64,000 nt of DNA from Thermodesulfobacteriota bacterium (GTDB taxonomy: Bacteria > Desulfobacterota_D > UBA1144 > Nemesobacterales > UBA2774), in NCBI GenBank assembly GCA_963422265.1, contig OY729416.1, positions 224,001-288,000 of the forward strand, in the 5' to 3' direction. Position 1 is the first letter of the stretch. Each line of letters opens with the position of its first letter. Positions 28,948 through 50,433 of the stretch are shown one piece after another. A model generated the notes under the pieces. That model was not told the DNA's origin. It saw only the letters and a list, made by a program, of their open reading frames with translations, and searched no databases. Made by a program: the position numbers and the translations under genes.

Positions 28948-29212
28948 GATTCGCAGATGTGCTCCACATGTTTTCATACATAAGCGCTTAACAAGCATTA
29001 AGAATTATCTAAATTTGTTTTATAGTTAAGTTCATAGTTGGGGAGTTTTTCCCCTCCCCAAAAGTTTAAGTATTGCAGCAGGTCATATAATTGGATATCC
29101 TAAGCTAGAAGGGGATCTAGCGGTTTTCAGTCTTAGGGTGATGGTCACTACCTGCCTTAATTCCGCTCCAACCTTGATTAGTTGTGAAGAACTGAGCTTT
29201 AGGCTTTGAAGC

Positions 29213-30346
29213 ATGGTTAAGAAAGAGGGTCGTAAAAACCGGATATTGCTCATCGCTCCTCTGGGATCTGGTAAGTCCGCCACCAACATCGTTGGGGGAA
29301 ACAGATTGATGGCTGCTGAGTCGATTCATGAGTTGACTCCGCGTGGTTTTGAGGTAGATGTCCTCGACACCTCAGGAAGCGTAACCAATCTATCTCCGTG
29401 GAAAATCCTATTTATTCGCCTGACGAGATTTTTTTTGGTGTTATGGAGCGTAGTGAAAAATATCCGACGCTTCGACGTGGTTTTTCTGCTTATCGCCCCC
29501 TATTCGGCGCTCGTCTTGGCAACGTCAATCTGGGTTATCTGTAAAATCGCGCGCAGACCCATGGTGCTGCGATTATCGGGGTCCAGCTTTGGCGAGGTAT
29601 ACAGCTCATACGGCGCGGTGGCTCGCTGGCTTGCCGATCGTACCTACATGCGCTGTGCGCTGATATATGTCGAAACTCTGCAAACGTCTCAGGAATTCAG
29701 CAATCTGGCGAATGTTCATTGGTTCCCAAATACGCGGAATGTCGAGTCGCCAGCCGTGGTCAGGCGTGACAGAGTGAGTAAACTGATCTTTGCTGGTCGT
29801 TTGGAGCGTAAAAAAGGGCTGGCTGAGGCACTAGAGGCATGCCGTCACCTTCCTGAACATTGTCATCTTCAGGTTTTTGGACCTCCGATGTCTAACACGG
29901 ATTTTTCCCTGTTCGAGGGACATCCCCGGGCGACCTATGGCGGCGTGTTGGAGCCGGCAGAGGTGCCTCGGGTGCTAAGCGAACACGACTTACTTTTATT
30001 CCCCAGTTATTTCAGCACCGAGGGCTATCCGGGCATTATTCTCGAAGCCTTCCAGTGCGGCGTGCCGGTTGTCGCCGCTAGGTGTGGGGGCGTTCCTGAG
30101 GTCGTCGAGCACGAACGCAGCGGGCTGCTGGTGGAACAACGATCCCCGTCGGCGTTGCAGTCGGCTATCGATCGGTTGCTAGACAACCCCGCCTTGTATC
30201 AGCGGTTGCGCCATGGCGCCCAACGCCGAGGGGAATATTTTCGCAGCCCAAACTGGTATGGCCAGATGGCTTCCGACCTAAGCGGCTTGTGTCGTAAAAC
30301 AAATTCCACGTGGAGATCTAACCCATACTCCTCCCGGCCTGTATAG
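29213..30346 (+). CDS. GT4-family glycosyltransferase
   Basis: FAGRLERKKG, LFPSY..EGYPGIILEAFQCGVPVVA. Confidence 0.92.
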   Translation: MVKKEGRKNRILLIAPLGSGKSATNIVGGNRLMAAESIHELTPRGFEVDVLDTSGSVTNLSPWKILFIRLTRFFLVLWSVVKNIRRFDVVFLLIAPYSALVLATSIWVICKIARRPMVLRLSGSSFGEVYSSYGAVARWLADRTYMRCALIYVETLQTSQEFSNLANVHWFPNTRNVESPAVVRRDRVSKLIFAGRLERKKGLAEALEACRHLPEHCHLQVFGPPMSNTDFSLFEGHPRATYGGVLEPAEVPRVLSEHDLLLFPSYFSTEGYPGIILEAFQCGVPVVAARCGGVPEVVEHERSGLLVEQRSPSALQSAIDRLLDNPALYQRLRHGAQRRGEYFRSPNWYGQMASDLSGLCRKTNSTWRSNPYSSRPV

Positions 30347-30349
30347 GAG

Positions 30350-32175
30350 ATGAAAAGCATGATTCCACTTATTAAATTACCCAAATGGCAATTCGAGTTT
30401 GTTAGAGGTCGGCTTATCAGTTTCGCGTTTTGGGCGCTAGCCGTCATGGTTTTGGTCAATATACATTGGCTACATCTTTGGGGATTGCCCATGGTGCGAC
30501 CTGTTGGCTATGTGGTGATACTCATTGCTTGTCTGCTTCTGCTGGCATTGGTTGGCTTTAGAAGGTGGAAGTCTCCAGGAATGCCCGCCTTGTTGGTCTT
30601 CACCACAATAGCGTCTTATCTACTCATCGGCAGTGGCGTCTCATTTGTTACTGGTGCTGAATGGCAACAGGGAGTGGGTAAAAATATACTGCGTCAAGCC
30701 TTCTTTTTCATCATCCTGCTGGCGGTCACGCTCGGCAGCAGGATGATGCTGGAGCGAATCGGAATCGAGCAATTATTAAAAGGGGTACTTGTGATCCTAA
30801 TAGCGAGTTGCCTCATCGTTCTGGTCTCCCCGATCCTGCGTGATCTCGGCGTGCTGCCACTCTACAGATTGCCCTTTCGCTTTACTGGTGCCTTCACCGA
30901 TCCAAATGACGCCGGCTTCATTGGCTGCATGGCGATAGTTCTGGCGCTGGCATTTATATGCCACGGCGTCCAACGCAAACTCGCGTATCTAAGCCTGACG
31001 CTAGGTTACGGCGCGATACTGGTGTCGTTCTCAAAGTCGGCATCGTTACTTCTTTGCGTGTTATCGATTTTTGTTCTGCTGACGAACGGTTTTGGCAAAC
31101 GAAATCACATTCTCCGCTATCTGCCTATTCTGGGCTTGGGCGCTATCGTCATTCACCTGGACTTAGGTGGGCACCTAAACAAAGTCAACATATATCCTGA
31201 CTATAGCCGTAACACCTTCTGTTCCACGGTGTCCTCTAGTAACCCCGGCTTACGCAGCGATTGCAGCATTCTGCTAGCCGCGCGGGACCCCCTGTCTGGC
31301 GGTGTCGCACTGAACTGGAGCGATTCGGTTCCCATCCCCCTTTGGCAGGGAGTAATGCTTCAAGGGCGTGTTGTGGGGCTGGATTTATCGCACATGAATC
31401 TGAGTGGGCGTATTCCGCCGGAGCTTGGTGGATTAGACCAACTCGTCTTGCTGCGTCTTAACCACAATCGGCTCACTGGACCCATCCCGCTGGAATTGGG
31501 GAAGCTGTCAAACCTCATGGAGTTGAAAATCTCTGGACCCGTCCCGCTGGAATTGGGGAAGCTGATGAAAATGAACTCACTGAAAATGAACTCACTGGAC
31601 CCGTCCCGCTGGAGTTGGGGAAGCTGTCAAACCTCATGGAGTTAAATCTCGATGAAAATGAACTCACTGGCAGTGCCCCGGCAGAGTTCTTGGGTATGAA
31701 ATTTGGTCGTGATACCAGTTTGACCGTCGGTGGTGAGAAGCTTAAATACGGATTTTCAGGACGGCGAATCCACATGTGGCGATCCAGTCTCGATAAAATA
31801 TGGGAGTCGCCCATCCTCGGGAGCGGCATAGGCATCTTCCGGTCTCTTGATAGCGGCGCCCTCAACCATGAGGGCGAACCGGTGGGCATCCACAATACCT
31901 ACCTACGATTGATCGGTGAAGCAGGCATTGTCCCGTTGTTACTATACTGTCTTTTCCTCTTCTCATTGATGTGGTTACAGTGGGCTACTCCACGGTCACT
32001 GGCCAGAAGTGTAATCGTCGGTTGCACAATTGCCATTTCCTTATACTGCGTAGCCTTCCAGCATTTACTCACCATGGGGACGTGCATATTTTTTTCCGGT
32101 TTAAGTTGCGCGCTGGCAGCTACAATTATGGGTTCCCGGCTTCCTTCCAATTCAGCTAGCTACCGTCCGCGGTGA
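30350..32175 (+). pseudogene. O-antigen ligase/polymerase-like membrane protein with inserted LRR module, frameshifted within the LRRs (about 31520-31600)
   Basis: First frame: TMs, RFTGAFTDPND, SFSKSA, LRR cap and LRRs. Second frame: LRR end, SGRRIHMW...ESPILGSGIG...IHNTYLRLIGEAGI, TMs. Confidence 0.75.
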
Positions 32176-32219
32176 GTATATAGTGTATTATATCTGGCGT
32201 GGCGATTTAACACATATCT

Positions 32220-32432
32220 TTAAGAGAGAAGTTTCGTGTCATTTTTAAGAGCGTTAGATAATGTTCCACCTAGTGGTGGAGATAGCGTGTAGCGGGGTTT
32301 TGTCCTCACGCCCAATGCCTCTAGTTGCTTTGCCAGTTCTTTATACTGAGCAACAACTAATTTGGAAACATTCTGATTGCGCTCCAGTAATTTTTCCTGA
32401 AACAAGTCTGTTTTTCGGGTTTTATCGGGCAT
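32220..32432 (-). CDS. Small hypothetical protein, opposite strand to the island, preceded by a degraded ORF region
   Basis: 70-aa ORF with plausible helical composition; no motif recognised. Confidence 0.4.
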   Translation of the reverse strand: MPDKTRKTDLFQEKLLERNQNVSKLVVAQYKELAKQLEALGVRTKPRYTLSPPLGGTLSNALKNDTKLLS

Positions 32433-32873
32433 AATTAAAGGAGGTATTCATTTGTATGAATGAAAGAGTGTAATTTCTCTCGGAGCAAGTAGTCACTCAA
32501 ATAAGAACTGTATAAGTTCGAAACTAGTTTACAATGTACATACTTTAGTGCGGATAGGCAATGCCGGATGATATAAGTCGCAGCCTCCTCGCATATCTCA
32601 GATACAACTCGGCGGTGGATCAATAACTACTAAAAAGCCTTGAACTTGGAAAGCTTAAGACTTTCTGCTTTCTGTGCCACCATTTCTGCCTCTAGGCGGG
32701 AAACTATCCAGATTACTCCACGAGATGCCTTGTCAAGCACGGCATGACAGAAATGTTCATTACCGCCCCCTTGATTTTAGTGTGACTTATATTTACACTA
32801 GCAATTTATGATTTTTTGGAATTTTATCTAATGAAAATACTAGATGTTAAGAACGGAAGGAGTAGAGATAGAA

Positions 32874-34058
<1,185 letters not shown>

Positions 34059-34266
34059 TGCAAGATCGCCCATTTGGATTATCTGCTGGAGAATACGGCA
34101 TCATGGGTGGGCACAGTATAGAGCCAGCTGCGGTAATGTAATGGGTTAAGAGGTCACCCGAGCGCTCCTTGCCGTCGATGCCATATACGCCTGATCGAAT
34201 GCTGTAGTTGACAGTTATGCCGAGGTTATTGGATGGTTACAATAAACTTATGAACGTCTGACTAGA

Positions 34267-35403
34267 TTGCCTATCATGACGATTAGATTGCTTTGTATTC
34301 TGCCGATCGGTACGGATGCCAGGATTGCCAAGCGTATTGACATGTTGCGCCGGACGGGCTTTGAGGTCGAGGCTTCAGGTTTCGAACGCAAGCACTATCT
34401 CGGCCGCCGGCCGGAGTGTTCTTTCGAATCGTTGGGCAACCTTTCAAATGGGCGTTACGGCGTCCGAATGAGAAAGTTGTTGTCGGTAATTCCTAAAGTT
34501 CGGGCTGCGATGCAGCGCAATGACGTCGTCTATGCGTTCAATGTTGACATGGCATTTCTGGCTCTGATCTCGGGAACCGGATTGAGGGTGCCGGTCATTG
34601 TGGAGGTAGCAGATATAAGAGAGATTCAACTCTCTAGCCGTCCGATCGGCCGCGTGGTTCGGTGGGTTGACAAACTGACGACGCGCGCCTGTCGGCTTCT
34701 GGTGCTGTCAACCGATGGCTATTCCCATTACTACCGTAATCGGCTGGGAGTGCGCACGCCGATGGTAATCGTTGAAAACAAGATAGATAGATCGTTTGCT
34801 GCTAGTGTTCGCGCCAGGGGCGCGCATTTCCTGAGTGGCCGTCCGCTGTTGGACCGTCCGATGCGCATCGGTTGGTTCGGCTATCTGAGAGATGAATGGT
34901 CGCTGAGAGTTGTCGAGTCATTGATGCGGTCGACCGATCGGTTCCAAGTTGTTTTCGCGGGCTCGCAATCGGAACCTTTGCGGAAACTCATGGAGACACT
35001 GGGAGAAATGCCCAACAGCGAGGTTTTGGGGCCATTTGACCATCCGACAGATTTACCGATGCTTTACGAGCGCATCGATATGAGCCTGATCTGCTACCCG
35101 CCGGATGCGCCTCACGGCTGGTCTCAATCAAACAGATACTATGATGCTTGCTTGTTTCAGAAGCCAGTCATCGTCCGGGCTGGTTGTGGTGATGCCGATC
35201 GGGTGTCTCTGCACGACATTGGACTAGTTATCACTTCGTCCGAGTTTGAAGATGCGGAGGAGGAGATTCGCGGCATCTCGGCTGCGAAGTGGGAGCGCTG
35301 GCGGGCCAATATGGCGGCTTTGCCGCCCGAGGATTACACGATGAGGAATGAGGATGTCGTCCTGCGGGATGCAATCAAAGACATCGTGAGGGGATCGGCG
35401 TGA
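34267..35403 (+). CDS. GT-B fold glycosyltransferase (ExoL-like)
   Basis: EVADIREI, VENKI, IGWFGYLR, SNRYYDA...KPVIV. Confidence 0.75.
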   Translation: MPIMTIRLLCILPIGTDARIAKRIDMLRRTGFEVEASGFERKHYLGRRPECSFESLGNLSNGRYGVRMRKLLSVIPKVRAAMQRNDVVYAFNVDMAFLALISGTGLRVPVIVEVADIREIQLSSRPIGRVVRWVDKLTTRACRLLVLSTDGYSHYYRNRLGVRTPMVIVENKIDRSFAASVRARGAHFLSGRPLLDRPMRIGWFGYLRDEWSLRVVESLMRSTDRFQVVFAGSQSEPLRKLMETLGEMPNSEVLGPFDHPTDLPMLYERIDMSLICYPPDAPHGWSQSNRYYDACLFQKPVIVRAGCGDADRVSLHDIGLVITSSEFEDAEEEIRGISAAKWERWRANMAALPPEDYTMRNEDVVLRDAIKDIVRGSA

Positions 35404-38400
35404 ATTGGACTGGTGTTGCGAACATCGTCCACCGGCTTGCTGGACATCGTTACGCCGGCCGAGTTCGACATGCGTTAGTTGATGGTGCATCCGGACTCGG
35501 CGCGGTCGCCCGGCGCCTGTCGTTTCCCGGCGACAGTTTCATTCTGCTGGCTTTGCTGCTAGCGGCGAATTTCCTGCGCATCTACGTTCCCAGCATGGTT
35601 GCCGACGGGCTCTTCGGCGTGACGGTGCTGTTCCTCGCTCTCTCGCTGTTTCGGGGGCGGTTGCACGACGGCGCAAAGACGCCCCTCCTCTGCTTCGCGG
35701 CCTTGCTGGTGGTCTACGGCGTCGGCCTTGTCTTCTATTTCAGCGCACAGGGCGCGAGCAATTTTGCCGCGATTCTGTTCGCCGGCGTCATCTATGCGTT
35801 CTGCTACCAGAATGCCCCAACGCTGATTCGAGCAAAGTACGCCATTCCCCTCTTTCTGGTAGCGGCTCTGGCACTGTTTCCGCTGTACCTGCTACCGGCC
35901 GGACTCAACGCAAATAGCTTTAGCAGCATCTTCGGATACTTGTTGCTGACCGTCGGGCTTATCCTGATAGCCCGCTCTGAGTGCCGAAGAAAACGGCATT
36001 TATGGGCACACGTCTTGTTCTTGCTGGTTATGGCGATTGGCATCATTTTCGGAACCCGGATACTTGTACTTCTCGCGCTATTGGCTTACCCGCTGTACTG
36101 GAGCGGGTACTTTTTCCTGCGAAACCGATTGGGTGCCGGCGCGTGGGTGGTGACCGCGGGATTGCTGATCTGCTTTCCGATCGTGTTTTTGGGAACGCCT
36201 CACTTCAGTGAAGTCATAATGACACTCGAGAGCTTCAGTCGAAAGTATACGGGGAGCGGCATACAAACTGGACGTGAGACATTTTGGCGGCACTCGCTGG
36301 CCGCCATCTCTGAGTCCCCTTGGCTTGGCAGAGGTCCCGGCACAGGTCCCGGCACAGGTGTTTCAGGTCTGACGAACGGTGACTCGTCTTCCTCTGCGCG
36401 CCGACTGGACCTTCCTCCTTCCTGTTTGGACGCGTCGAACCAAGGCTTGATAGCCGACTGCGAGATTCTGCTCGGCGTGCGAAACACCCTGACCGGCGAT
36501 TCCGAACTTCACTACACATGGGTCCCGTCCCGCTCTCTGGATTCCTGGCAGGGCGTGACGGTAGGCGGCGCACCCGCTCGTGTGGTCGCGGTGAATTTGC
36601 CGAAGCAGGGATTGCGCGGCGCCGTTCCGCCCGAACTGGGGGGGCTGGATAAGCTAGAGTTTCTGAGGCTCAGCAAGAACTTCCTGACTGGACCCATTCC
36701 GCCGGAGTTGGGGCGGCTGGGCAACCTGCGGGTGCTGGCACTCGACGACAATGCGTTAAGCGGCCCTATTCCACCGGGGCTCGGGGCGCTCGAAAACCTC
36801 GAGGAACTGCGGCTGCGCGGCAACAGGCTGAGTGGCGAGGTGCCGCCGGAGCTGGAGGCGCTGGCCAACCTGTCGCTGCTACACCTCGCCGGCAACGACT
36901 TCACCGGCACCGTGCCGCCGGGGCTACGCGATGCGGCGGACCATGATCTCGACCGGGACCTGCTCTGCCTATCGGAGTCAGGTATAAAAGAGGGGCTGCT
37001 TGCTGACTGTGAGATTCTACTGGTAGCGCGGGACATACTGGCCGGCGACGCTGTTCTCAACTGGAAGCGCTCTAGACCCATCTCCATATGGCAAGGCGTA
37101 GCTATAGACGATACGGTGGAGGGATCGCGTGAGGGATTGCGTGTAGTTGCGCTGGACTTGACGGGGGTTGGACTGAGCGGAAGTATTCCATCCCAATTTG
37201 GCGAACTGGATCAACTTATCTCGATGCGTCTCGACGACAACAGGCTCACTGGCTCCATCCCGCTGGCATTGGGAAAGCTAATGTATCTGAAAGAGTTGCG
37301 CTTGGCAAACAATAAGTTGAGCGGCACGATCCCATCAGAGTTGGGATTGCTGTTCAGCCTGTCGGTTCTGCGTCTTGCCGGAAATGAGTTCGTGGGTGGT
37401 TTGCCATCGACGCTCGATCATGTTGTCAATCATGATCTCGGCATGGGACTATTCTGCATTCCCTCACCTCAAATCAGCTATGGCATGCTCAAGGATTGCA
37501 CGACTTTGTTGGAAGTGCGTGACGTTCTGGCGGGGGACGCCGACAACGATATGGTGCCTGATGTTGCTCTCGATTGGAAGCGCTCCAGACCCATCTCCAA
37601 GTGGCGGGGTGTGAAGTTAGGCGGTGCACCAGTGCGCGTGGTTGAGTTGAATTTGCAGAAGGCGAAGTTGGGCGGCATTATTCCACCGGAGTTGGGGCGG
37701 CTGGACCGGTTGGAAGTGCTGAGGCTCTTAGATAATCACCTGACCGGCCCGGTCCCGCCTGAGCTCGGGCGGCTGACCAATCTACGGATACTGGTGCTCG
37801 CCTACAACGCATTGACTGGTTCCGTCCCGGCCGAATTGGGTAAGCTTGAAAACCTAGAGGAGCTATGGCTGGCTGGTAACCGTCTCAGCGGCGTGGTGCC
37901 GCTGCAATTAGCGGCACTTAATAATTTATCTCTGCTGCGCCTTGCCGGCAACGAATTTTCCGGTGTCCTGCCGCGAAGGTTTTACGACGTGTTAAGCCAC
38001 GACATTGACTGGGAGGTACTCTGCATGCCATCACCGCATATTGGCGAAGGGTTACTTGCCGACTGCGAGACCCTGTTAGCGGCGCGGGATGATCTGGCGG
38101 GGGACGCTGTTTTAGACTGGAAGCGCTCCAGACCTATCTCCGCGTGGCAGGGCGTGGCTATAGATGATACAGTGGGTGGCGCACGGGTGGTCGCTCTGGA
38201 CTTGATGGGGGTTGGGCTGAGCGGGCGTATTCCATCCCAGCTCGGCAAACTGAAACAGCTTATTTCGATGCGTCTTGCTGACAACCGCTTGACTGGTTCC
38301 ATCCCGAAGTCACTTGGGTCTCTCAAGAACCTTGAGGAACTGTGGCTGCGCGGTAACCGGCTAAGTGATTCGGTGCCGTCTCAACTAACGAGGTTGAACA

Positions 38401-41400
38401 AACTGTCCGTGCTGCGTCTGGCTGGTAATAAATTCGCGGGCGACCTGCCGCCGGGGATGCGCGACGTGGCGAGCCATGATCTCGACCGGGAACTGCACTG
38501 TCCGGCCGCTCCTCGCAGCAACACCGGACTGGTCAATGATTGCGTCGTATTGTTGGAATTGCGAGACAGGCTGGCTGGGGACGCCACGCTCAACTGGAGC
38601 GCTGCGGTTCCCATAGATTTCTGGCAAGGCGTGACGGTGGTAGGGACGCCGGCCCGGGTGACGGAGCTAGACTTAGCAGGGACGGGTCTCAGCGGCATCG
38701 TCCCGCTGGAACTCTCGGAGCTTGACAGTCTGGAAGCGCTGAGGCTAAGCCAGAATGCCCTAACTGGACCCATTCCACCTGAGTTGGGGCAACTTACCAA
38801 CTTGCGCGAACTTCTACTTGGCGACAATGTCCTGAGCGGTGACATTCCGCCGGAACTGGGAGACCTGGAACAGCTACGATTGCTGCATCTGTACCAGAAC
38901 CGTCTCAGCGGTTCCATCCCACCTGAGCTGGGCGAGCTGCGCAATCTGCGCGGACTGAGTTTGGCTCTCAATCGTCTGACCGGGGCGATTCCAGCGGAGT
39001 TGGGCAGATTGAAGAACCTCCGATGGTTGAATCTCTGGCGCAACCGTCTATCCGGCCACATTCCATCGGTGCTAAAAAGGCTAGAGCAACTGGAGTTTGT
39101 CAGACTCTCGCACAATGAATTTGTTGGTGTGGTGCTAGAAGACTTTGGGAATGACGGTGCAGAACTGAAGCCTGCCACACCTGATCTGATACGCCCCGGT
39201 ACCAGCCCCGAACTGCTTGCTGATCGTGCCGTGCTGTTGGCGGTGCGCGATGTTCTTGCTGGTGATGGTGATGTGTCCTTGAACTGGAACGACTCGACCC
39301 CCATGGAGTATTGGGAGGGTGTCGTGCTGGGTGGTGCACCGGCGCGGGTGACAGCGCTGAATTTGCCGGAGAGGAGGCTGAGCGGTCACATTCCCCCGGA
39401 GTTGGGGAAACTAGACCGACTTGTGTCCCTCCGCCTCCATCGCAACCGCCTAACTGGGACTATTCCTCCCGAGCTAGGGAGGCTGTCCGAGTTGCGTGAG
39501 CTGGCGCTCGGCTCCAACACACTGAACGGCGAAATCCCCAAGCAGTTGGGAGACCTTGAGCAGTTGACCATGCTGCACCTGCGCCGGAATCAACTCTCCG
39601 GACAGATTCCAATGGATCTCGCTCGACTGATGGAGCTGCGAACCTTGTTGCTAGACTTCAATATCTTGAGTGGTAAGGTGCCGTCTGAACTCGCAAAACT
39701 CCCTAATTTGGAGGAACTGCGGCTTGCCGGTAATCAGGTGGATATCCCACCGGAGCTGGCGTCCATCGCCCCGTTGCTTCGAGGCGACATTGAGCCTGCA
39801 TCCTCGGACTCAGATGGTGTTCCCGTTGCCAATGAGACTGCGCGTCGCGCGGGTATGGATCTGTTCTGTCCGAACGCGGCAGCGAAGGGTGATGGCTTGG
39901 CTAGCGATTGCGCCGCACTGCTGGCCGCAAGGGATGCTCTGGCCGGGGAGCGTACATTGAACTGGAATCGCGCGCTGCCCATCGGCGCATGGCAGGGTGT
40001 CTCTGTCGGCGGACAGCCGCCGCGTGTGTTCGCGGTGAACCTGTCGCGAGTTGGGTTGTCCGGATACATTCCGTCGGAGCTGGGACAGTTGGAGAAACTT
40101 ATATGGTTGGATCTTAATGAGAATGCCTTGACCGGTGCAATTCCGCCAGAACTGGGGATGCTGTCCAGATTGCGCAGACTATCCTTTGCAGGCAACAAAC
40201 TGAGCGGTTCCATCCCGTCAGAATTGGGCAATCTGTCGACTCTGGAAGAGCTGCGGTTATCTGGTAATCGACTGACTGGACCTATCCCGGCGGAACTTGG
40301 GGCGCTGGGTGGCCTTTCAATGATGCAACTTGGCGGAAACGAATTCTCCGGTTGCCTCCCGTCGGAGCTGCGAGGTATGGCCGACCGCGAACTGGAGCTC
40401 GATCTACTCTGCGATTCTTCGATGGAGAGTGAACGGAGATTGCGCGAAGATGCCATTGCCCTTATGGAGCTGCGGGATATCCTAGCCGGTGGCGCTAGTC
40501 TGAACTGGAGCTATGAAAATCCCATCTCTTCCTGGGAGGGCGTTACCGTAGGACCGGTAAGCCCCGCTGGTCGAGAAGCGCAGGATAAAGGCGTGATGCA
40601 GGAAACCGAGCGTGTGATCGGGTTAGACTTGTCGGGGATGGATCTCGATGGCCGTCTGCCACCGGCGCTCGGACGCCTGGAAAAACTCATCTGGCTACGC
40701 CTCAACGACAACCGCCTGACCGGGCAGATTCCGCCGGAGCTAGGGCAGCTTGCCGACTTGCGTGAGCTCGGGCTTGAGTCTAATGCCCTGACTGGTTCCG
40801 TCCCGCCGGAGCTCGGACAGCTCGCGCATCTCTCGGAGTTGTGGCTCGGCGGCAATGGCTTGACCGGACCCATTCCGCCGGAGCTGACGTCGCTCGCTGC
40901 GCTGAGGGTTCTGCAGCTCGGCGGCAACGAATTGTCCGGCTGCATTCCGCAGTTCGGCAGTAGCGATGTGATGCGCTCGCTCTGGGCCTTGCTTGAGCTT
41001 CCATCTTGCGGGAGCGAAGCGACAGACAAGAGATTCTTCACCCTCGGCGAAGCCATCAGGAGCCTGAACAAGGCCGTGGATCCCTCGACTCCCGGCGGAA
41101 TCCCCCGATCTGCCCATAATCTGTTCTTGCAGGTGGGTCTGCAAACGGGGATTTTTGGTCTCAGCGCCCTCGGCCTTCTTTGCACGTCCCTGATTTTCAA
41201 CCTGCGAGCGCGAAGCGGAAGAAGGGTCACGCCGGTGCAGTGTTTTGCCGCAACCTGTACCACTGTTATCCTCATCCACAATACGTTTGAGGTCTTCCTG
41301 CTGCAAAACGCATTCACCGTGGGATGCGTCGCATGGATACTGATCGGCCTCGGCGCGGGGGTGGTCAATCACATCGGGCGTGTCCCCGAAAACCCGCTTG

Positions 41401-41459
41401 ATGCCGGCCCGCGAAACCATGAGCGATATACTATAACAACGAAAGTCCACGTGCCATGA
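35400..41459 (+). CDS. O-antigen ligase/polymerase (Wzy_C/WaaL-like) with 8 capped plant-type LRR modules inserted in its large loop (2019 aa)
   Basis: Multi-TM N-terminus with GTR, TGRETFW...ESPWLGRGPG, about 41 24-aa LRRs (LxGxIPxELGxLxxLxxLxLxxNxL), then SAHNLFLQVGLQTGIFGL and final TMs. Confidence 0.88.
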   Translation: MNWTGVANIVHRLAGHRYAGRVRHALVDGASGLGAVARRLSFPGDSFILLALLLAANFLRIYVPSMVADGLFGVTVLFLALSLFRGRLHDGAKTPLLCFAALLVVYGVGLVFYFSAQGASNFAAILFAGVIYAFCYQNAPTLIRAKYAIPLFLVAALALFPLYLLPAGLNANSFSSIFGYLLLTVGLILIARSECRRKRHLWAHVLFLLVMAIGIIFGTRILVLLALLAYPLYWSGYFFLRNRLGAGAWVVTAGLLICFPIVFLGTPHFSEVIMTLESFSRKYTGSGIQTGRETFWRHSLAAISESPWLGRGPGTGPGTGVSGLTNGDSSSSARRLDLPPSCLDASNQGLIADCEILLGVRNTLTGDSELHYTWVPSRSLDSWQGVTVGGAPARVVAVNLPKQGLRGAVPPELGGLDKLEFLRLSKNFLTGPIPPELGRLGNLRVLALDDNALSGPIPPGLGALENLEELRLRGNRLSGEVPPELEALANLSLLHLAGNDFTGTVPPGLRDAADHDLDRDLLCLSESGIKEGLLADCEILLVARDILAGDAVLNWKRSRPISIWQGVAIDDTVEGSREGLRVVALDLTGVGLSGSIPSQFGELDQLISMRLDDNRLTGSIPLALGKLMYLKELRLANNKLSGTIPSELGLLFSLSVLRLAGNEFVGGLPSTLDHVVNHDLGMGLFCIPSPQISYGMLKDCTTLLEVRDVLAGDADNDMVPDVALDWKRSRPISKWRGVKLGGAPVRVVELNLQKAKLGGIIPPELGRLDRLEVLRLLDNHLTGPVPPELGRLTNLRILVLAYNALTGSVPAELGKLENLEELWLAGNRLSGVVPLQLAALNNLSLLRLAGNEFSGVLPRRFYDVLSHDIDWEVLCMPSPHIGEGLLADCETLLAARDDLAGDAVLDWKRSRPISAWQGVAIDDTVGGARVVALDLMGVGLSGRIPSQLGKLKQLISMRLADNRLTGSIPKSLGSLKNLEELWLRGNRLSDSVPSQLTRLNKLSVLRLAGNKFAGDLPPGMRDVASHDLDRELHCPAAPRSNTGLVNDCVVLLELRDRLAGDATLNWSAAVPIDFWQGVTVVGTPARVTELDLAGTGLSGIVPLELSELDSLEALRLSQNALTGPIPPELGQLTNLRELLLGDNVLSGDIPPELGDLEQLRLLHLYQNRLSGSIPPELGELRNLRGLSLALNRLTGAIPAELGRLKNLRWLNLWRNRLSGHIPSVLKRLEQLEFVRLSHNEFVGVVLEDFGNDGAELKPATPDLIRPGTSPELLADRAVLLAVRDVLAGDGDVSLNWNDSTPMEYWEGVVLGGAPARVTALNLPERRLSGHIPPELGKLDRLVSLRLHRNRLTGTIPPELGRLSELRELALGSNTLNGEIPKQLGDLEQLTMLHLRRNQLSGQIPMDLARLMELRTLLLDFNILSGKVPSELAKLPNLEELRLAGNQVDIPPELASIAPLLRGDIEPASSDSDGVPVANETARRAGMDLFCPNAAAKGDGLASDCAALLAARDALAGERTLNWNRALPIGAWQGVSVGGQPPRVFAVNLSRVGLSGYIPSELGQLEKLIWLDLNENALTGAIPPELGMLSRLRRLSFAGNKLSGSIPSELGNLSTLEELRLSGNRLTGPIPAELGALGGLSMMQLGGNEFSGCLPSELRGMADRELELDLLCDSSMESERRLREDAIALMELRDILAGGASLNWSYENPISSWEGVTVGPVSPAGREAQDKGVMQETERVIGLDLSGMDLDGRLPPALGRLEKLIWLRLNDNRLTGQIPPELGQLADLRELGLESNALTGSVPPELGQLAHLSELWLGGNGLTGPIPPELTSLAALRVLQLGGNELSGCIPQFGSSDVMRSLWALLELPSCGSEATDKRFFTLGEAIRSLNKAVDPSTPGGIPRSAHNLFLQVGLQTGIFGLSALGLLCTSLIFNLRARSGRRVTPVQCFAATCTTVILIHNTFEVFLLQNAFTVGCVAWILIGLGAGVVNHIGRVPENPLDAGPRNHERYTITTKVHVP

Positions 41460-42622
41460 AATTACACGATTTCGTCGAATATCTGTGTTGTCCCGTGACC
41501 GGAAGTGCACTCTATCTCACCCCCTCTTCCCCGATGGAGCGAGAACAACTTGTCCCGATACCGCGTAAAGGTCAGAATGCGCAGCCATTCGGAGTAAGTG
41601 AACAGGTGCTGACTCTCAAGCACGATCCATCCATCCATTATCCGGTGGTGGACGGGATTCCTGTCCTGCTCGGACCCGAAAGACTTGTGCCCACCGACAG
41701 CCCGCTGTCCCGGTGCCCGGTTGTAGATCTTCATGACCCGATGTATAGAGAAGCCTATGAAGAGAGTGAGGTCTACAACGCAGTCGTCAAAGCGAAAATG
41801 CTCGAACTTGCGCACGATTGCACGGATGACGTGGACTACATGGAAGGGCTAGCAGGACAAAAGGATATCGCTTCTGTTGCTCTGAGCTTTCCCGAACCCG
41901 CCGATATCTGGCTCGAAGTCGGATACGAGCCGGGAGGTCTGTTCGAGGCGTACCGATATCTGGCACCGGTCGACGGCAAGACGGTTATGCAAGTCGGAGG
42001 TACGGGCGCGCACGCGGTCAAGCTGCTGCTGGCAGGCGCGAGGAGCGGGTTCCTGTTAACGCCGATGCTGGATGAGGCGCGATATGCAATGCGCCTGGCG
42101 GAGGTTTTTGGCGTCCGCGACCGGTTCGCCTCCGTTGTCGGAGTCGGTGAGCAGATTCCGTTCAGAGGCGACTTATTCAATTTGGTCTGTTCTTTCAGTT
42201 GTCTCCATCATATGCGCCTTGAACATGTGGCGGGTGAATTGCACCGGGTGCTCAAAGAAGGTGGGAAGTTCGCGAGCGTCGATCCATGGAAGACGCTCCT
42301 GCACACCATCGGCACGGCGGCGCTCGGCAAGCAGGATTCATCGGTATATTGTCGGCCCATCACGGCAAAACGGATGGCGGAGATGAGAGAATGGTTCCCG
42401 GATATAACTGTCGGCCGGCACGGACCGTTGCTTCGGTATCTGTGTCTGGGATTGGAAAAGTTGAGCGGAGGTAGATTTTTTCCACGGAGCAACAGAAAAT
42501 ACCAGAAGATGCTGATGCGCATTATGCGCGCCGACGATGCCCTGGGTCGGTTCATCGGCTTGAAAGGCGGCATTATTGTCATGATGGGCACAAAATCAGC
42601 GCTGTCACCGAATCACTCCTGA
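41456..42622 (+). CDS. Class I SAM methyltransferase with Trm112-like N-terminus
   Basis: LCCPVTG...YPVVDGIPVLL; MQVGGTG, GEQIPF...FNLV...LHH, HRVLKEGG. Confidence 0.8.
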   Translation: MKLHDFVEYLCCPVTGSALYLTPSSPMEREQLVPIPRKGQNAQPFGVSEQVLTLKHDPSIHYPVVDGIPVLLGPERLVPTDSPLSRCPVVDLHDPMYREAYEESEVYNAVVKAKMLELAHDCTDDVDYMEGLAGQKDIASVALSFPEPADIWLEVGYEPGGLFEAYRYLAPVDGKTVMQVGGTGAHAVKLLLAGARSGFLLTPMLDEARYAMRLAEVFGVRDRFASVVGVGEQIPFRGDLFNLVCSFSCLHHMRLEHVAGELHRVLKEGGKFASVDPWKTLLHTIGTAALGKQDSSVYCRPITAKRMAEMREWFPDITVGRHGPLLRYLCLGLEKLSGGRFFPRSNRKYQKMLMRIMRADDALGRFIGLKGGIIVMMGTKSALSPNHS

Positions 42623-42833
42623 TCCGGAACACTAATGCTCCGAGTCTCTGAAAATATGGTAGAAAACGAAAGCAGGAAGCCAGGGATGGGTGGTCCCTTA
42701 TAGCTACATATTTGGGATGTATCTGTGGATTCTTTTGAATTAGACCTGTGGAGCAGTTCATATTGTTCTCTTTGACTTTAATTAACTTGTGTTTTAAACT
42801 ACCCTAATACTATGAGCCGTAGTGTGAAGCACC

Positions 42834-43208
42834 ATGAAGTTTGTTGATTACTTCTACTTGGTTCTGATGCCTCTTCTATTGTCCGCCGGGCAGGTTCTGT
42901 TCAAGAGTACATCTGGTGTCTTAGATGCTCATTCGTCATACCGATTTTTCGTCTCGCTGCTTGGCAGTCCACATTTCTGGGCTGCCCTGTGTGTTTATGG
43001 AGCGGCTACGTTGCTGTGGGTGTTTATCTTGTCCCGCGTGCCTCTGAGCAGGGCAATGCCTTTCGTTGCCCTGACTTTTATTATCGTTCCTATTATCAGT
43101 GCAGTGTTTTTCGGCGAACGGTTGAACCTCATGTATTGGTTCGGCGTCTTCGTGATCGTGGTCGGCGTGTATATTACGGTCGCCGCGCAAGGCAAGGTTA
43201 CTGTATAG
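42834..43208 (+). CDS. Small DMT/EamA-type transporter (ArnE/F-like, possible lipid-carrier flippase)
   Basis: Four TMs, GQVLFK, LSRVPLSRAMP, FFGE. Confidence 0.8.
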   Translation: MKFVDYFYLVLMPLLLSAGQVLFKSTSGVLDAHSSYRFFVSLLGSPHFWAALCVYGAATLLWVFILSRVPLSRAMPFVALTFIIVPIISAVFFGERLNLMYWFGVFVIVVGVYITVAAQGKVTV

Positions 43209-43384
43209 GAGGCTTTAGTAATAATAGAGACTAATAGTGTAAGATGTTTCAATATAGATCGGTTCACGGAGTTGTTGGCGCTACGGGGCAAGCTTTCTCT
43301 TCTGCGCCTTGCCAGCAACAACTTCTCTAACAACATGGCGCCGAGAGCCAGGTTGCCTATGTTGTTCCGCATGAGCTGCGGCGT

Positions 43385-44839
43385 GTGCAAAGCACTATTT
43401 GGGCGCGAAGTTCTGGAGCCGGTGGCTTGAGCGCAAAGATTAACCCCACTGGGGCAGGCTCCGCTCCACCGAACCAGCGCTCCAGCGTAACTTCACCCGA
43501 AGCACGATTACTCGGCAACAAGTCCGAACCTGCGGCTCGCGAGGTCGCCCTGGTGTTTGGGACCCGCGTCGGCGTTTACACAATAGCACTTCTCAGTCAG
43601 AGCTTACTTGCCTACCTTCTCTTGCCTGCCGGTCGCGGCGAATATGCAGTATGCGTTGCATTCGCTAGTATGCTCGGAGTGGTCTTCGCAGTCAGCACTG
43701 CTAATGGCGCCCAGTATTTCGCAGTGGCTGGACGGATCAGCCTGTCGAAATGTTTGTGTGGGGCGTTCGGCGTCTGCCTTGTCGGAAGCATCGTTGCGAC
43801 GGCCGTGGCGCTGCCACTAATCCATAGCGATGTGACTTTCTTTCAGAAGGCGGAGACTGGCTCGTTCCAGCTTGCGTTGTTGCTGGTGCCACTCATCTGC
43901 GTTTCTTATGCCGCCGAGCTCCAGATCGCCGGGCTTAGACGCTTCGCTCTGCTGGCGCGATTTCTGTTGCTTCAGTCCTTCACTTTGGTGGTGGGAGTCG
44001 TGGTGTTAGTCTGGGTATTCGACCAGGGGGTGAATGGTGCTATTCTCGCTCTGATTGCAAGCTACATCGTCAAGCTGGCGTGCTGTGTCTGGGATCTATG
44101 CAGAGCCTGCGGACTGAAGTTTGAGATGCCATCCGTTTCCGAGCTTCGCCACGTTGTTGGATACGGTATCCGGTATCACATCGCTCAGGTCGGAAACGAA
44201 ATCGAACCACGCATCGGAGTGTTTGTACTGGGCTTGTTGGCTGGCCGGGTGGACATCGGGCTGTTCGCCGCCGCTAGCACAATCATGCTTCGCTTGGGAT
44301 TCCTGCCCAGTTCGGTCGCGCCGGTGTTGTTTCCGCGCGTGGCAAAGGACCCGGCTAAGTCAATGGAGGCGCTCGGGTATTCCCTGCGTCTGGTTTGCCT
44401 GCCCACCGCAATGGTGGTTGTGGTATTTCTGGCTATTAGTGAGCCCGTGATCCGCATACTACTCTCCGAGGCATTCGTCCCTGTGGTTCCGTTGCTGTGG
44501 ATAATGTCGCCGGGCATTGTCGCCTATGCTGCGTCTAACATATTCATAGCCTATTTCACCGGTAACGACCGGCCGGGCGTTTGCTCCTCAGCTTTGTGGC
44601 TGAGCTTAGTCGTCAATGTAGCGACCTGTTTTGCGCTGTATCCAACCCTAGGCATCCGCAGCATTGCCTGGGCGATGACCATCGGGTTGATTGCTCGGTT
44701 CGTGTTTGTCGCCATAGTGTTCCACCGCGCCACCGGCTTGTCCCTCTGCTCTCTCTGGCTGCCCCGCCGTGGCGACCTAGTTTATCTTAAGAACTCTCTC
44801 TTTGTCGCCGTCTCTGGTATAAGATGGCTGAAGAAGTGA
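43385..44839 (+). CDS. Wzx-type oligosaccharide flippase (true start probably downstream)
   Basis: About 12 TMs, LLPAGRGEYA, IGLFAAA, VLFPRVA. Confidence 0.85.
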   Translation: MQSTIWARSSGAGGLSAKINPTGAGSAPPNQRSSVTSPEARLLGNKSEPAAREVALVFGTRVGVYTIALLSQSLLAYLLLPAGRGEYAVCVAFASMLGVVFAVSTANGAQYFAVAGRISLSKCLCGAFGVCLVGSIVATAVALPLIHSDVTFFQKAETGSFQLALLLVPLICVSYAAELQIAGLRRFALLARFLLLQSFTLVVGVVVLVWVFDQGVNGAILALIASYIVKLACCVWDLCRACGLKFEMPSVSELRHVVGYGIRYHIAQVGNEIEPRIGVFVLGLLAGRVDIGLFAAASTIMLRLGFLPSSVAPVLFPRVAKDPAKSMEALGYSLRLVCLPTAMVVVVFLAISEPVIRILLSEAFVPVVPLLWIMSPGIVAYAASNIFIAYFTGNDRPGVCSSALWLSLVVNVATCFALYPTLGIRSIAWAMTIGLIARFVFVAIVFHRATGLSLCSLWLPRRGDLVYLKNSLFVAVSGIRWLKK

Positions 44840-45014
44840 TACCGTAGTGATTATATAGACAATCATGGTTGGGGGTATATTAAGACAATTGTTTCTTGTT
44901 TCTCCACGATGTTTAATACACTCTGCGACAGTTCCCACAGGAATGATAGCATCTGTGATTCTGGTTCTAATAAGTCTATTACCTTTTTAAGCAGTTATGT
45001 GACTGAACTCTCGC

Positions 45015-47287: not shown

Positions 47288-48441
47288 CAAGCCCCTCGGG
47301 AGAGGGAATGGGTGAGGGCTTCTCTTCACGTATTACCTCCCCCCCTTGGACACAGGGTCAGGGCACTTCCTTATCTTCTCCCCCTTTAGAGACAGGGACT
47401 AGGGCGCTTCCTTATCTTCTCCCCCTTTAGAGAAGGGGGATACAGGGGGATTTGATAGGGCATCGGGGAACGAACCCCTTCCTTATTATAGTTTGAAAGA
47501 TGGTTTGGCACGATTGGAAAGGGGCGATAGCTCCTGTCTGAGTTGGCTCTTCAGGGTGGTATCCTGAGCGGTCAGCGAGCTGGTTGCACTGTCCCGAGCG
47601 GTTGGTGAACCTGCCGAACCATGTAGAAGCGGGTGAGCTTGTCCAATCCATCTGAACTGTTCAGCTCCCCAGCTCCCCTGAAAACCTTACAAACTTATAC
47701 CTTTTAGCGATTTTCTGGATATTGGAAAGATGGTTTGGCACGGAGTTAAGCCTTTTAAAAACAGAAAACATAATTATTACAGGCTCTTCTTTATCATTTT
47801 CGCCCAATACAAACAAAATCCCCACCAACCACAAAGATTCCCCCGACCACCCATCAGGGCGACCATCCTTCGACAGGCTTAGGACATCGCTTACCAACTA
47901 GAGGCACCCCTACAACCACATCCGTCCTCACTTCGTTTTTCTGAATCCTCTACTCATCCCCCCAAGCATTGCCTCTATTCTTGCCTGCCCCTCCTGCAGC
48001 CCAGACAATCTGGCATCCATAGCCTTTGTCAGTCTTAATCTCCCTAACGTCTTCTCTATATGATCTATCTTCACTCTCAATACGTCTTGCTCAGTCATCC
48101 CCCACCTCCTTTATACCTCATCGTTACCCTGAATTTTCTGTCAAGCTTTTTAAAAAAACTTTATACCTCATTATACCCCAATCATAGCCCATCATTCAAT
48201 CCTAAAAATCCTAGTTCAGACCTCCTTTCCCTCTGAGAGAGGAATACAAGGTGAGGCGCTTCCTTACATACTCCCCCTTTAGAAAAGGGGGATTTAGGGG
48301 GATTTGATCTTTATCCTTCCAATCACAGCTCATCATTCAATCATTCAAATCACAGTTCAGACATCCTTCCTCCCCCTGGGAGAGGGTCAGGGTGAGGGCG
48401 CTTCCTTATCTTCTCCCCCTTTGGAAAAGGGGGATACAGGG
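47288..48441. repeat. Mosaic of REP-like palindromic repeats
   Basis: Several copies of CTTCCTTATCTTCTCCCCCTTTAGAGAAGGGGGATACAGGGGGATT-like, GGGAGAGGGnnnGGGTGAGGG, CCTTCGACAGGCTTAGGAC and AATC...AGTTCAGAC units. Confidence 0.8.
47928..48098 (-). pseudogene. Degraded coiled-coil ORF (56 aa) between REP clusters
   Basis: RBS GAGGTG; MTEQDVLRVKIDHIEKTL...LSGLQEGQARIEAML; weak resemblance to 13802-14176. Confidence 0.35.
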
Positions 48442-48565
48442 AAGCTGTGCTACCCTCTTGATCTCTTCAGTTGTGGATAGCGGGCAGGCTTCAGTCAGTT
48501 ACAATTATTCGGCGGGTCATACACGAGTTCTATCTCGGGATCATGACACACAGAAGGAGGTTCGT

Positions 48566-48724
48566 ATGGCAATAATATTTGCAATAATAGTAACCGTGTT
48601 ATTGATATTCGCATGTATCAGCATCATTCACCTATCTATAGCGTTACTTAATCACGTTATATGTACAGGTACTGATAGGTTATTTAGCAATCGCCGTAGA
48701 GGACGGCAAGGATGGAAACCATAA
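48566..48724 (+). CDS. 52-aa hydrophobic protein with basic tail, encoded inside the CRISPR array
   Basis: AAGGAGGT RBS; MAIIFAIIVTVLLIFACISIIHLSIALLNHVICTGTDRLFSNRRRGRQGWKP. Confidence 0.65.
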   Translation: MAIIFAIIVTVLLIFACISIIHLSIALLNHVICTGTDRLFSNRRRGRQGWKP

Positions 48725-48739
48725 ACTAAGGAGGTTCCA

Positions 48740-48883
48740 ATGAAAGAATATACACTGCAAGAATTTTTAGATGTCTCCATGACAAGACGAGATGGTGACA
48801 TACTCTTCACCTCGGCGACGGGCGAGGATATCCGTATCAGGTTGTGGATAGCGGGCAGGCTTCAGTCAGTTACAATATCATAA
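48740..48883 (+). CDS. 47-aa ORF starting in the long interval and reading through repeat 2
   Basis: AAGGAGGT RBS; MKEYTLQEFLDVSMTRRDGDILFTSATGEDIRIRLWIAGRLQSVTIS. Confidence 0.45.
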   Translation: MKEYTLQEFLDVSMTRRDGDILFTSATGEDIRIRLWIAGRLQSVTIS

Positions 48884-49190
48884 TATGTTGCCGTCCCCCC
48901 CCGCGTGTTGTGGATAGCGGGCAGGCTTCAGTCAGTTACAATATATTCCAATTACGGTTTTGCAACGGGTCGGTTGTGGATAGCGGGCAGGCTTCAGTCA
49001 GTTACAATCAAGTCCCTGACGGGCCAATAGAGCCAAGCGTTGTGGATAGCGGGCAGGCTTCAGTCAGTTACAATCAAGTCCCTGACGGGCCAATAGAGCC
49101 AAGTGTTGTGGATAGCGGGCAGGCTTCAGTCAGTTACAATTGCTTGCTCTCGACTGCCTTGCTGGTAAGGGTTTTAAGCCCCTCAACAAA

Positions 49191-49535
49191 TTAAAAAAGA
49201 GAGATTTGTTGAGGGGCTCCTTCCAATTTCTTCCGTTTTTTTCCATAGAAAACCTGCATTCGTCCAAACTGTTTATCCGTGATAGTAATAATTCTGACCT
49301 CTCCTCTGGGTGGCAATTCATCTCTGACACGCCCCGAGTGGACATAAGCGTTTTCTTCACTTGCGCAATGTCTGGCATATACTGAAAATTGTAACATTAT
49401 AAAACCGTCTTGTATTAGCGACTTTCTGAATTTTCCATAAGAACGCCGATCCTGTTTGGTATCAGTAGGCAGGTCAAACATTACTAATATCCACACTGTT
49501 CTATATCCTCCGAAAGCCACTGTTCTATACCTCAA
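49191..49535 (-). CDS. cas2: CRISPR-associated Cas2 (type II)
   Basis: WILVMFDLPT, FRKSLIQDGFIMLQFSVYAR, ITDKQF. Confidence 0.96.
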   Translation of the reverse strand: MRYRTVAFGGYRTVWILVMFDLPTDTKQDRRSYGKFRKSLIQDGFIMLQFSVYARHCASEENAYVHSGRVRDELPPRGEVRIITITDKQFGRMQVFYGKKRKKLEGAPQQISLF

Positions 49536-50433
49536 GTCTCATCTGTTTATTATCAAGAAGTTGTGGGATCATCAGGGAATCCACGCCATCGGAGAAGGCT
49601 TTTTTCAAACTAGAAGCCGTATGCTGGGTTGCGACCATAAGGGGCAGTTTTCTGGTTTCAAGCAGAACGTCTTCTGATAAGATAGAAAGTAGAGGCATTT
49701 TTGTTCTCTTGTTTAGCTCGGACTTTCCGGCTTCTACCAATTCATAGACTCGTCTGTCAACAAGGGGGCGCAATGGCTCCATAACGTCATCGGCAAGACA
49801 CATAGGATTGTATTGGTTGTGGTGATGGATTCCGAGGGCAGGATGAAGTCCAGTTCCGCATAAAGCCCGCGCTACCGATGCTCTTACTATGCTATATCCA
49901 TAGTTGAGTAGGGAGTTTATTCCTTCCTCTTTATAATTCCTGGTAAAACTTTTGCCAAACAGCGTTATCCAATATACTCTCGCCGCCTGTGATTCTATAT
50001 TTTCAGTATCTCCACTATTAACCCTTTTTTTCATTGGGGGCAGGGAAGTTGGGTCTTTATTAAAGAAAAGCAGGGTTCGGATTTGAGATTCTATTTTAGC
50101 GACAATTATTTTCTGCCAAAGCCTTTTCTTCAAGGGTTTTTTAACTCCTGTTTGTATATTAAGCACTCTACTGTGAACTGAGTTGCCCGAAAGGGGTAGC
50201 AGGACCGAAACCGGAAGATGTTTGTTGTCGCAGAATACTACTATGCAATTGTTGTGCTGACACGAGGCGATAAGGCTTTGGGAAATGGTAATGAAGGGGT
50301 TGGCAAGTATAAGAATTCCCATATCTTCTACGGGAACGCTTTCGTCTTTTTCACCCTCCCTTTTCACAATCATTTGACGGTTTTTCAAGTGAAGATACGC
50401 CGGATTGCTTACTTCAATGATTCGCTTGATCAT
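49525..50433 (-). CDS. cas1: CRISPR-associated Cas1 (type II)
   Basis: SGDTENIESQAARVYW, INSLLNYGYSIVR, LGIHH, LADDVMEP. Confidence 0.97.
   Translation of the reverse strand: MIKRIIEVSNPAYLHLKNRQMIVKREGEKDESVPVEDMGILILANPFITISQSLIASCQHNNCIVVFCDNKHLPVSVLLPLSGNSVHSRVLNIQTGVKKPLKKRLWQKIIVAKIESQIRTLLFFNKDPTSLPPMKKRVNSGDTENIESQAARVYWITLFGKSFTRNYKEEGINSLLNYGYSIVRASVARALCGTGLHPALGIHHHNQYNPMCLADDVMEPLRPLVDRRVYELVEAGKSELNKRTKMPLLSILSEDVLLETRKLPLMVATQHTASSLKKAFSDGVDSLMIPQLLDNKQMRLEV

Follow-up and report, generated by a model that had tools for sequence, protein, structure and literature searches.

A predicted WaaL/PglL-type glycan transferase with plant-type leucine-rich repeat modules inserted in its catalytic loop in a Thermodesulfobacteriota bacterium

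O-antigen ligases such as WaaL and protein O-oligosaccharyltransferases (O-OTases) such as PglL share a set of residues, with R215, R288 and H338 of E. coli WaaL corresponding to R224, R298 and H349 of PglL (excerpts of PMC3643930). Two arginines of O-antigen ligases bind the diphosphate and the histidine activates the acceptor, whereas a polymerase of glycosyltransferase family GT126 has a glutamate at the position of the ligase histidine (excerpts of PMC10920833). Wzy polymerases also match the Pfam family Wzy_C and belong to the same GT-C clan, and the O-antigen-ligase-family enzyme WadA is joined to another module, as GT121 plus GT25 (excerpts of PMC10920833). PglL-type O-OTases move undecaprenyl-pyrophosphate (undecaprenyl-PP)-linked glycans onto proteins. 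The choice of acceptor by WaaL/PglL-type enzymes is an open question that limits their use for glycoconjugates. To our knowledge, the known O-OTases are without leucine-rich repeats (LRRs) or other dedicated substrate-binding repeats. The gene described here lies in a 64,000-nucleotide (nt) stretch, called the window, of a Thermodesulfobacteriota genome (assembly GCA_963422265.1, contig OY729416.1, positions 224,001 to 288,000), and it encodes a Wzy_C protein in whose catalytic loop LRR modules totalling about 1550 amino acids (aa) separate the GxG motif from the histidine. Positions throughout are window coordinates, i.e. contig coordinates minus 224000, and the features are collected in Table 1. 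An earlier note, made from the bare sequence, had read the gene as an O-antigen ligase or polymerase with inserted plant-type LRRs and knew of no characterised protein of this architecture. A full-text literature search likewise found no paper describing a Wzy_C/WaaL protein with LRRs, with supplements (e.g. the trees and lists of PMC10920833, where an LRR-bearing GT121 member is possible) outside the search.

The LRR gene is one uninterrupted frame without an internal stop. It overlaps both neighbours: its first 4 nt coincide with the end of the upstream gene, and the start of the downstream gene coincides in part with its stop. The motifs pointed out by the earlier note are all in place, with TGRETFW at 36267-36287 and ESPWLGRGPG at 36312-36341 before the insertion and SAHNLFLQ at 41109-41132 after it. 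A six-frame search of the genome matched Wzy_C in two pieces of the same open frame: the first half at 36018-36344 (profile 2-105, 38.4 bits, above the cut-off) and the second half at 41082-41168 (profile 119-147, 20.6 bits). When the full-length protein was compared with Pfam, the two Wzy_C stretches together scored 31.3 bits, just under the cut-off of 31.7, and LRR_1, LRR_4, LRR_8 and LRR_14 scored 186-271 bits (LRR_1 271, LRR_8 186). The domain scan proposed earlier thus recovered Wzy_C and, strongly, the LRR families; the expected cap family LRRNT_2 stayed under its cut-off of 20.7 bits, with one weak match of 18.9 bits at module 8 (aa 1683-1716). NCBIfam returned for the LRR protein only LRR-driven matches (XopAC, XopAE, XopL, internalins and a Leptospira fibronectin-binding protein), all far under their cut-offs, and gave no family for the N-terminal core (N-core) or for the LRR-less relative P0041. 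Exactly at the core/array junction, at 36327-36359, a 12-nt tandem repeat, GGCACAGGTCCC, in 2.8 copies encodes GPGTGPGTG; P0018, an 83% identical protein, has a shorter version of it.

The core was compared with known enzymes through P0041, which is 35% identical to the N-core of the window protein. The fold predicted for P0041 from a 16-sequence alignment (predicted local distance difference test, pLDDT, 79.6; predicted template modelling score, pTM, 0.82) has WaaL of Cupriavidus metallidurans (7TPG; CAZy GT121) as its best match (7tpg_B, Foldseek E 8.2e-6; VIA-align Z 21.5, root-mean-square deviation 5.4, 332 residues), followed by SEDS proteins at Z about 11 (top 11.5). The likeness to WaaL comprises the 12-helix GT-C fold, the Arg/Arg/His set in the periplasmic loop and the Wzy_C match, although P0041 and WaaL share just 13-14% sequence identity and WaaL has no counterpart to the LRR modules. 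Searched against the sequences of the PDB, the family profile had a sole match, 9rmk_A ‘Oligosaccharyltransferase’ (E 9.6e-7); WaaL was not retrieved in that search and came only from the fold comparison. All 16 LRR-less relatives match Wzy_C in Pfam, and their invariant columns are R220, G291, R292, W296, G310, S363 and H365 (P0041 numbering), with R220, R292, W296 and H1906 as the equivalents in the window protein. Profile matches and predicted folds together show an inner-membrane core of the WaaL/PglL type (Pfam Wzy_C, GT-C fold), putatively of the ligase/O-OTase class, that keeps the two predicted phosphate-binding arginines and the predicted acceptor-activating histidine; the flanks of the array are thus what the earlier note had taken them for. 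Hydropathy and the distribution of Lys and Arg assign several parts to the cytoplasm, namely the N-terminus, two loops at aa 85-95 and aa 192-204, and the stretch that follows the first C-terminal helix, in agreement with a WaaL-like 12-helix topology. The same positive-inside pattern puts the interrupted catalytic loop in the periplasm. The array itself is predicted to be periplasmic because of the positive-inside loops, the homology to WaaL and the 16 cysteines that it contains.

The inserted array consists of eight tandem capped modules with 41 LRRs, a total that takes in the irregular first repeat of each module. The caps have the form C...GL..DC..LL..RD.LAG...LNW....W.GV, and a C-x11-13-C pair is found in caps 1-5 and 7, with no cysteine in cap 6 and one in cap 8. 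Both the module count and the cysteine pairs in most caps agree with the earlier description. Judged by the consensus LxxLxxLxLxxNxL(T/S)GxIPxxLGx, the repeats are of the 24-residue plant-specific LRR class. Among the regular repeats, L1, L4 and N12 are each present in 33/33, G16 and P19 in 31/33 and T/S15 in 28/33, a conservation far beyond chance. A phmmer search with module 1 matched 274 PDB sequences at E up to 0.001, the top ones being the plant receptors GSO1 (E 1.5e-124), FLS2 and MIK2. The fold predicted for P0020, a one-module relative of 637 aa, has a pLDDT of 81.4 (above 90 in the LRR domain, below 50 in the linkers at 288-301 and 490-541) and a pTM of 0.66, and its LRR domain, cap included, superposes on whole SERK1/BAK1/BIR ectodomains (TMt 0.75-0.81, 32-35% identity). 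The earlier assignment to plant-type LRRs therefore stands on the consensus, the PDB matches and the SERK/BAK1-like fold of this module. Bacterial modules and plant ectodomains (SERK/BAK1/BIR, GSO1, FLS2, MIK2) have in common the 24-residue repeats and an N-terminal cap whose helix leads into W-x-GV. Unlike the plant receptors, the bacterial modules are predicted to be periplasmic, stand eight in series with a cap each and are joined to no kinase; their cap cysteines form the C-x11-13-C pattern before the helix.

The modules of the window protein share 44-68% identity with one another, and they match those of orthologues in collinear order, at 60-73% identity and with duplications and losses in some orthologues. 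Across 7 orthologues, identity is 91% at scaffold positions, 62% on the concave face and 49.5% at convex non-scaffold positions, whereas concave positions are just 17.8% identical among the repeats of the window protein. As the concave face is kept between orthologues and divergent between repeats of one protein, we infer repeat-specific binding surfaces under purifying selection, rather than a passive spacer or an arms-race surface. In the host genome this capped LRR module type is found only in two Wzy_C genes, the LRR gene and a second one described below.

The insertion point was followed through the relatives of the N-core (aa 1-330). A word-indexed search of proteins of 1110-3534 aa found 14 others (1122-2427 aa); by precomputed Pfam matches, LRR families are present in 14/14 and Wzy_C in 11/14. 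HMMER, run exhaustively over 1.84 billion representatives, returned 46 matches, 32 of them at E <= 2.7e-28 and the next, after a gap, at 1.1e-7. The strong matches comprise 26 proteins of 593-3250 aa, four LRR-less full-length proteins (401-464 aa) and two fragments. The distance from the GxG motif to the histidine could be read where a regular expression found both motifs, in 39/57 proteins, the other 18 being fragments or misses of the expression. It is 13-16 aa in 8 distant LRR-less proteins, so that the motifs do lie close together in ordinary relatives as the earlier note had stated, 35-73 aa in 3 close LRR-less proteins, and 206-2760 aa in 28 others that bear up to 14 caps; the value for P0015 is mis-anchored. 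Module counts in orthologues are lower bounds, since the cap expression misses some caps (e.g. module 6 of P0004). The insertion point is common to about 30 related protein clusters, whose module numbers run from 0 to at least 14. Given these spacings and cap counts, the insertion point is fixed and the module number variable, which is also the outcome of the homologue search suggested earlier. The core is conserved at 60-71% identity (N-core) and 68-78% (C-terminal core) between orthologues.

A second Wzy_C gene with a capped LRR module lies in the same window (Table 1). Its core has no sequence relation to the first, and only the LRRs match, at 52% identity. Its module is placed upstream of the R-x3-W motif, at another point of the same loop. 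The window copy is broken into two frames, and a frameshift is indicated because the spacing between its LRR copies is 57 and 62 nt rather than 72. Intact LRR-bearing relatives of 562-638 aa form 14 clusters, 9 of which also match Wzy_C by precomputed Pfam; thirteen other relatives match no LRR family, and some of these have other inserts at that position. Intact members are found in an Arenicellales metagenome-assembled genome (MAG; 657 aa, one module) and in a Pseudomonadales MAG (1092 aa, four modules). By these comparisons, two Wzy_C lineages have acquired the same LRR module independently in the same periplasmic loop, a coincidence which suggests that the module is functionally tied to the active site.

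The host genome is a single contig, 99.4% complete. It gave no match for LpxC, LpxB, LpxK, Kdo transferase or LptD, and LpxC was found in 0/31 genomes when 30 relatives were included. Two Omp85 genes are present, and the lineage appears, from its gene content, to have an outer membrane without lipid A. Since the lipid A pathway of the WaaL acceptor was not found, the enzyme would serve an acceptor other than lipid A-core in this host, and the earlier label ‘O-antigen ligase’ does not apply here in its strict sense. The genome has one small initiating phosphoglycosyltransferase of the Bac_transf family (218-aa frame). An ordinary Wzy_C gene (482-aa frame, 73.9 bits) lies about 2.6 kb away, and the site, at 896217-899811 in contig coordinates (C1), is probably a housekeeping glycan or glycosylation locus. 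With Bac_transf present, undecaprenyl-PP-linked donors can be made.

The LRR gene belongs to a GC-rich island at about 29200-45000 of the window (GC 0.55-0.61 vs 0.39-0.47 in the flanks). Close relatives of the N-core are found in four MAG records of different phyla (Table 1). A gene for a GT4-like glycosyltransferase is directly upstream of the LRR gene in 4/4 of these loci, and the gene for the 484-aa Wzx-like membrane protein is adjacent in 3/4 (L010, L011 and L012). Island GC in the Nitrospirales and Arenicellales loci is 0.6-0.67 vs 0.49-0.50 in the flanks, and the Arenicellales island consists essentially of the three cassette genes only, between comEC-like and folate genes. The LRR gene was not found in 40 relatives of the host genome, two of which gave only weak LRR matches, and searches of 30 relatives each of the Nitrospirales and Arenicellales MAGs did not find the N-core. 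This patchy, cross-phylum distribution indicates that a three-gene cassette (GT4-like gene, Wzx-like gene and LRR gene) has been transferred horizontally.

Taken together, the LRR protein may be an undecaprenyl-PP-glycan transferase of the WaaL/PglL type whose predicted periplasmic array brings an acceptor or partner other than lipid A, most likely a protein, to the active site; this reading is given a probability of about 45%. The GT4-like enzyme would complete an undecaprenyl-PP-linked glycan in the cytoplasm, the Wzx-like flippase would bring it round to the periplasmic side and the WaaL-like core would transfer it to the acceptor, which in this host would not be lipid A-core. The array, presumably stabilised by disulfides and flexibly tethered beside the active site, would serve as a docking platform for the acceptor or for a partner in the envelope, with one or several proteins as the likeliest candidates. 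The enzyme would then be an O-OTase-like protein glycosylase with built-in substrate-binding modules. Neisseria PglL and 9rmk, as O-OTases of the PglL type, are similar in their Wzy_C core and Arg/Arg/His set (excerpts of PMC3643930), and their transfer of glycans onto proteins is the role proposed here. WadA has its second catalytic domain attached end to end (excerpts of PMC10920833), whereas the LRR protein has a non-catalytic array inside its catalytic loop.

Several observations weigh against a docking glycosylase. The domain PglL_A (PF15864) of PglL-type enzymes was undetected in the window protein at E up to 0.1 and in the 16 LRR-less relatives at E up to 0.01. The related loci examined have no candidate acceptor gene in common next to the cassette, and no acceptor was identified. 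LRRs can bind glycans or lipids too, so that a protein ligand is an assumption. The other four cassette hosts all have LpxC (4/4), and lipid A-core ligation is possible in them. The folds were predicted for the relatives P0041 and P0020 and not for the window protein, and the P0020 model, at its pTM and linker confidence, does not define how the LRR domain is oriented against the core. The flippase assignment of the 484-aa protein stems from language-model similarity only, with no Pfam or NCBIfam match.

The likeliest competing account makes the protein a Wzy-type polymerase of repeat units, with the array as a periplasmic scaffold or ruler for chain length or export coupling in place of a Wzz-like co-polymerase. 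It would suit a gene that lies, as in Wzy/Wzz pathways, among GT1, GT2 and GT4-like glycosyltransferases and a Wzx-like protein in a genome with no match for Wzz; the spread of module numbers within the family, 1 to at least 14, is what an adjustable ruler might show, and no host-specific acceptor is needed, which fits hosts with and without lipid A genes. The invariant histidine, however, follows the ligase/O-OTase pattern and not the glutamate of GT126 (excerpts of PMC10920833), a rule taken from that one polymerase family; the best fold match is WaaL, and the LRR protein has no similarity to Wzz. A passive ruler would also not need repeat-specific concave faces kept between orthologues, and in the Gammaproteobacteria MAG the immediate neighbours of the cassette include an ordinary Wzy_C gene along with a weakly Wzz-like one. 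Polymerisation is therefore considered unlikely. The two neighbours in that MAG, at 17736-20555 of locus L010 after the cassette, encode a 469-aa Wzy_C protein and a Wzz-like protein that scores 20.1 bits against a cut-off of 25.5.

The array could instead be the payload, a eukaryote-like binding protein for interaction with a host or neighbour that is held in the envelope or released by proteolysis or vesicles, with the core mainly as its anchor. Plant-receptor-like modules, their restriction to two Wzy_C genes in the host genome, and a cassette common to MAGs of different phyla at 60-82% protein identity yet not found in 100 relatives would be expected of such a niche-adaptive gene. An anchor, on the other hand, would hardly require the conserved catalytic Arg/Arg/His and entire 12-helix core; both ends of the array re-enter the catalytic loop, the array lies beneath the outer membrane and no cleavage or secretion signal was identified in the protein, which makes a payload quite improbable. 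For the same reason, that both array ends return to one loop under the outer membrane, the idea of the earlier note that the array might sense a host or phage ligand by direct contact is unlikely, an argument that draws partly on general knowledge of envelope dimensions. It is no more probable that the enzyme is gated by a ligand, with LRR binding opening or closing the active site since the array separates Arg292 from His1906. The position between catalytic motifs, the flexible tethers and the conserved concave faces would allow gating, but there is no direct evidence of allostery, and the second family has its module upstream of both motifs, not separating them.

The docking transferase may also be extended to a mobile ‘receptor-enzyme’ cassette of three genes, in which each LRR module docks a different periplasmic or outer-membrane protein and one enzyme glycosylates a defined set of envelope proteins even without lipid A genes, a solution that two lineages would have reached independently; this extension is speculative and on the doubtful side. 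With modules of a recognisable protein-binding type placed twice, independently, in an acceptor-side loop, acceptor choice becomes directly testable. The family would further represent plant-receptor-type LRR ectodomains in a bacterial periplasm, a surface-glycan cassette moving between phyla, and ‘O-antigen ligase’ homologues in an outer-membrane bacterium without detected lipid A pathway genes. New relative to the earlier note are the second Wzy_C-LRR lineage, the cassette and its apparent transfer, the conservation of the binding surfaces and the missing lipid A pathway in the host group.

Repetitive genes misassemble easily, the adjoining paralogue is frameshifted and the closest orthologue (L010) is split in two, all of which would suit an assembly chimera or a decaying pseudogene. 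The frame is nevertheless intact across its 2019 aa, and a 5212-nt contig of the public run X1 shows 0 differences over 36098-41309 and spans both core/array junctions, contrary to the chimeric join at an LRR boundary that the earlier note had considered. The C-terminal junction is also spanned by contigs of X2 and X5, runs that belong to two studies. None of the sequencing runs listed as containing the sequence was an RNA run. Because X1 may be the source sample, the comparative evidence is the stronger argument for the reality of the gene, namely the N-core relatives with the same insertion point and the intact orthologues of 2051, 2427 and 1350 aa in other MAGs. Collapse or chimerism is also unlikely because the repeats share just 60-79% DNA identity, and an artefact is thus extremely improbable. 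At 36940-37964, run X6 has a variant 95-99% identical to the window that lacks 12 nt at 37127, and one of its contigs joins 37964 back to 36940, which hints at another module arrangement in another strain. The X2 and X5 contigs are one base shorter than the window at 41520, inside the methyltransferase gene, and this gap is either a strain difference or an assembly error.

Table 1. Features of the LRR-bearing Wzy_C gene, its island and related loci (window coordinates unless a locus is named)
Feature	Position	Strand	Remarks
WaaL-type (Wzy_C) membrane glycosyltransferase with LRR array, whole gene	35400..41459	+	2019 aa, GTG start; open reading frame and Pfam
N-terminal core	35400..36392	+	about nine predicted transmembrane helices, invariant Arg220, periplasmic helix with Arg292/Trp296, ESPWLGRGPG
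LRR module 1	36393..36941 (aa 332-514)	+	cap with Cys342/Cys354, 5 LRRs
LRR module 2	36942..37430 (aa 515-677)	+	4 LRRs
LRR module 3	37431..37997 (aa 678-866)	+	5 LRRs
LRR module 4	37998..38474 (aa 867-1025)	+	4 LRRs
LRR module 5	38475..39158 (aa 1026-1253)	+	7 LRRs
LRR module 6	39159..39842 (aa 1254-1481)	+	6 LRRs, cap without Cys, Pro/Ser/Ala-rich linkers on both sides
LRR module 7	39843..40385 (aa 1482-1662)	+	5 LRRs
LRR module 8	40386..41036 (aa 1663-1879)	+	5 LRRs, one cap Cys, weak LRRNT_2
C-terminal core	41037..41459	+	conserved amphipathic helix, SAHNLFLQ with invariant His1906, three more predicted transmembrane helices, cytoplasmic tail
GT1-family glycosyltransferase	29213..30346	+	start of GC-rich island
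Second Wzy_C gene with capped LRR module	30350..32175	+	two frames, 30350-31645 and 31462-32175
GT2-family glycosyltransferase	32844..34058	+	(AAGC)n tract at 5' end
GT4-like glycosyltransferase	34267..35403	+	378 aa, translationally coupled to LRR gene
S-adenosylmethionine (SAM) methyltransferase	41456..42622	+	388 aa, start overlaps LRR gene stop
Multi-pass membrane protein	43385..44839	+	484 aa, Wzx/Polysacc_synt-like by language-model features only
Orthologue, Gammaproteobacteria MAG (L010)			N-core 82% identity; gene split into 448 and 1501 aa
Orthologue, Nitrospirales MAG			N-core 65% identity; 2051 aa
Orthologue, Arenicellales MAG			N-core 67% identity; 2427 aa
Orthologue, Pseudomonadales MAG			N-core 60% identity; 1350 aa
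Intact second-family genes	L014 677-2650; L015 913-4191		related loci

The island stands between alternative-complex-III genes (20.7-28 kb) and a luciferase-like monooxygenase/methyltransferase pair. Direct repeats framing it were not seen among the 20 largest of 21 repeat families; apart from one chance-like 24-nt pair, these families fall within the LRR genes, the AAGC tract or the region at 47-48 kb. About 45 tandem AAGC units occupy 32882-33060 at the 5' end of the GT2 frame, where they are read as (QASK)n. Tetranucleotide tracts of this sort are classic on/off switches that work by strand slippage, and this surface-glycan gene may accordingly undergo phase variation. Beyond the island, on the side away from the alternative-complex-III genes, a type II CRISPR-Cas locus (47360-53640) has Cas9 at 50414-53638 and Cas1 at 49525-50433 on the minus strand, and short G+C-rich palindromic repeat elements occupy 47362-48450.

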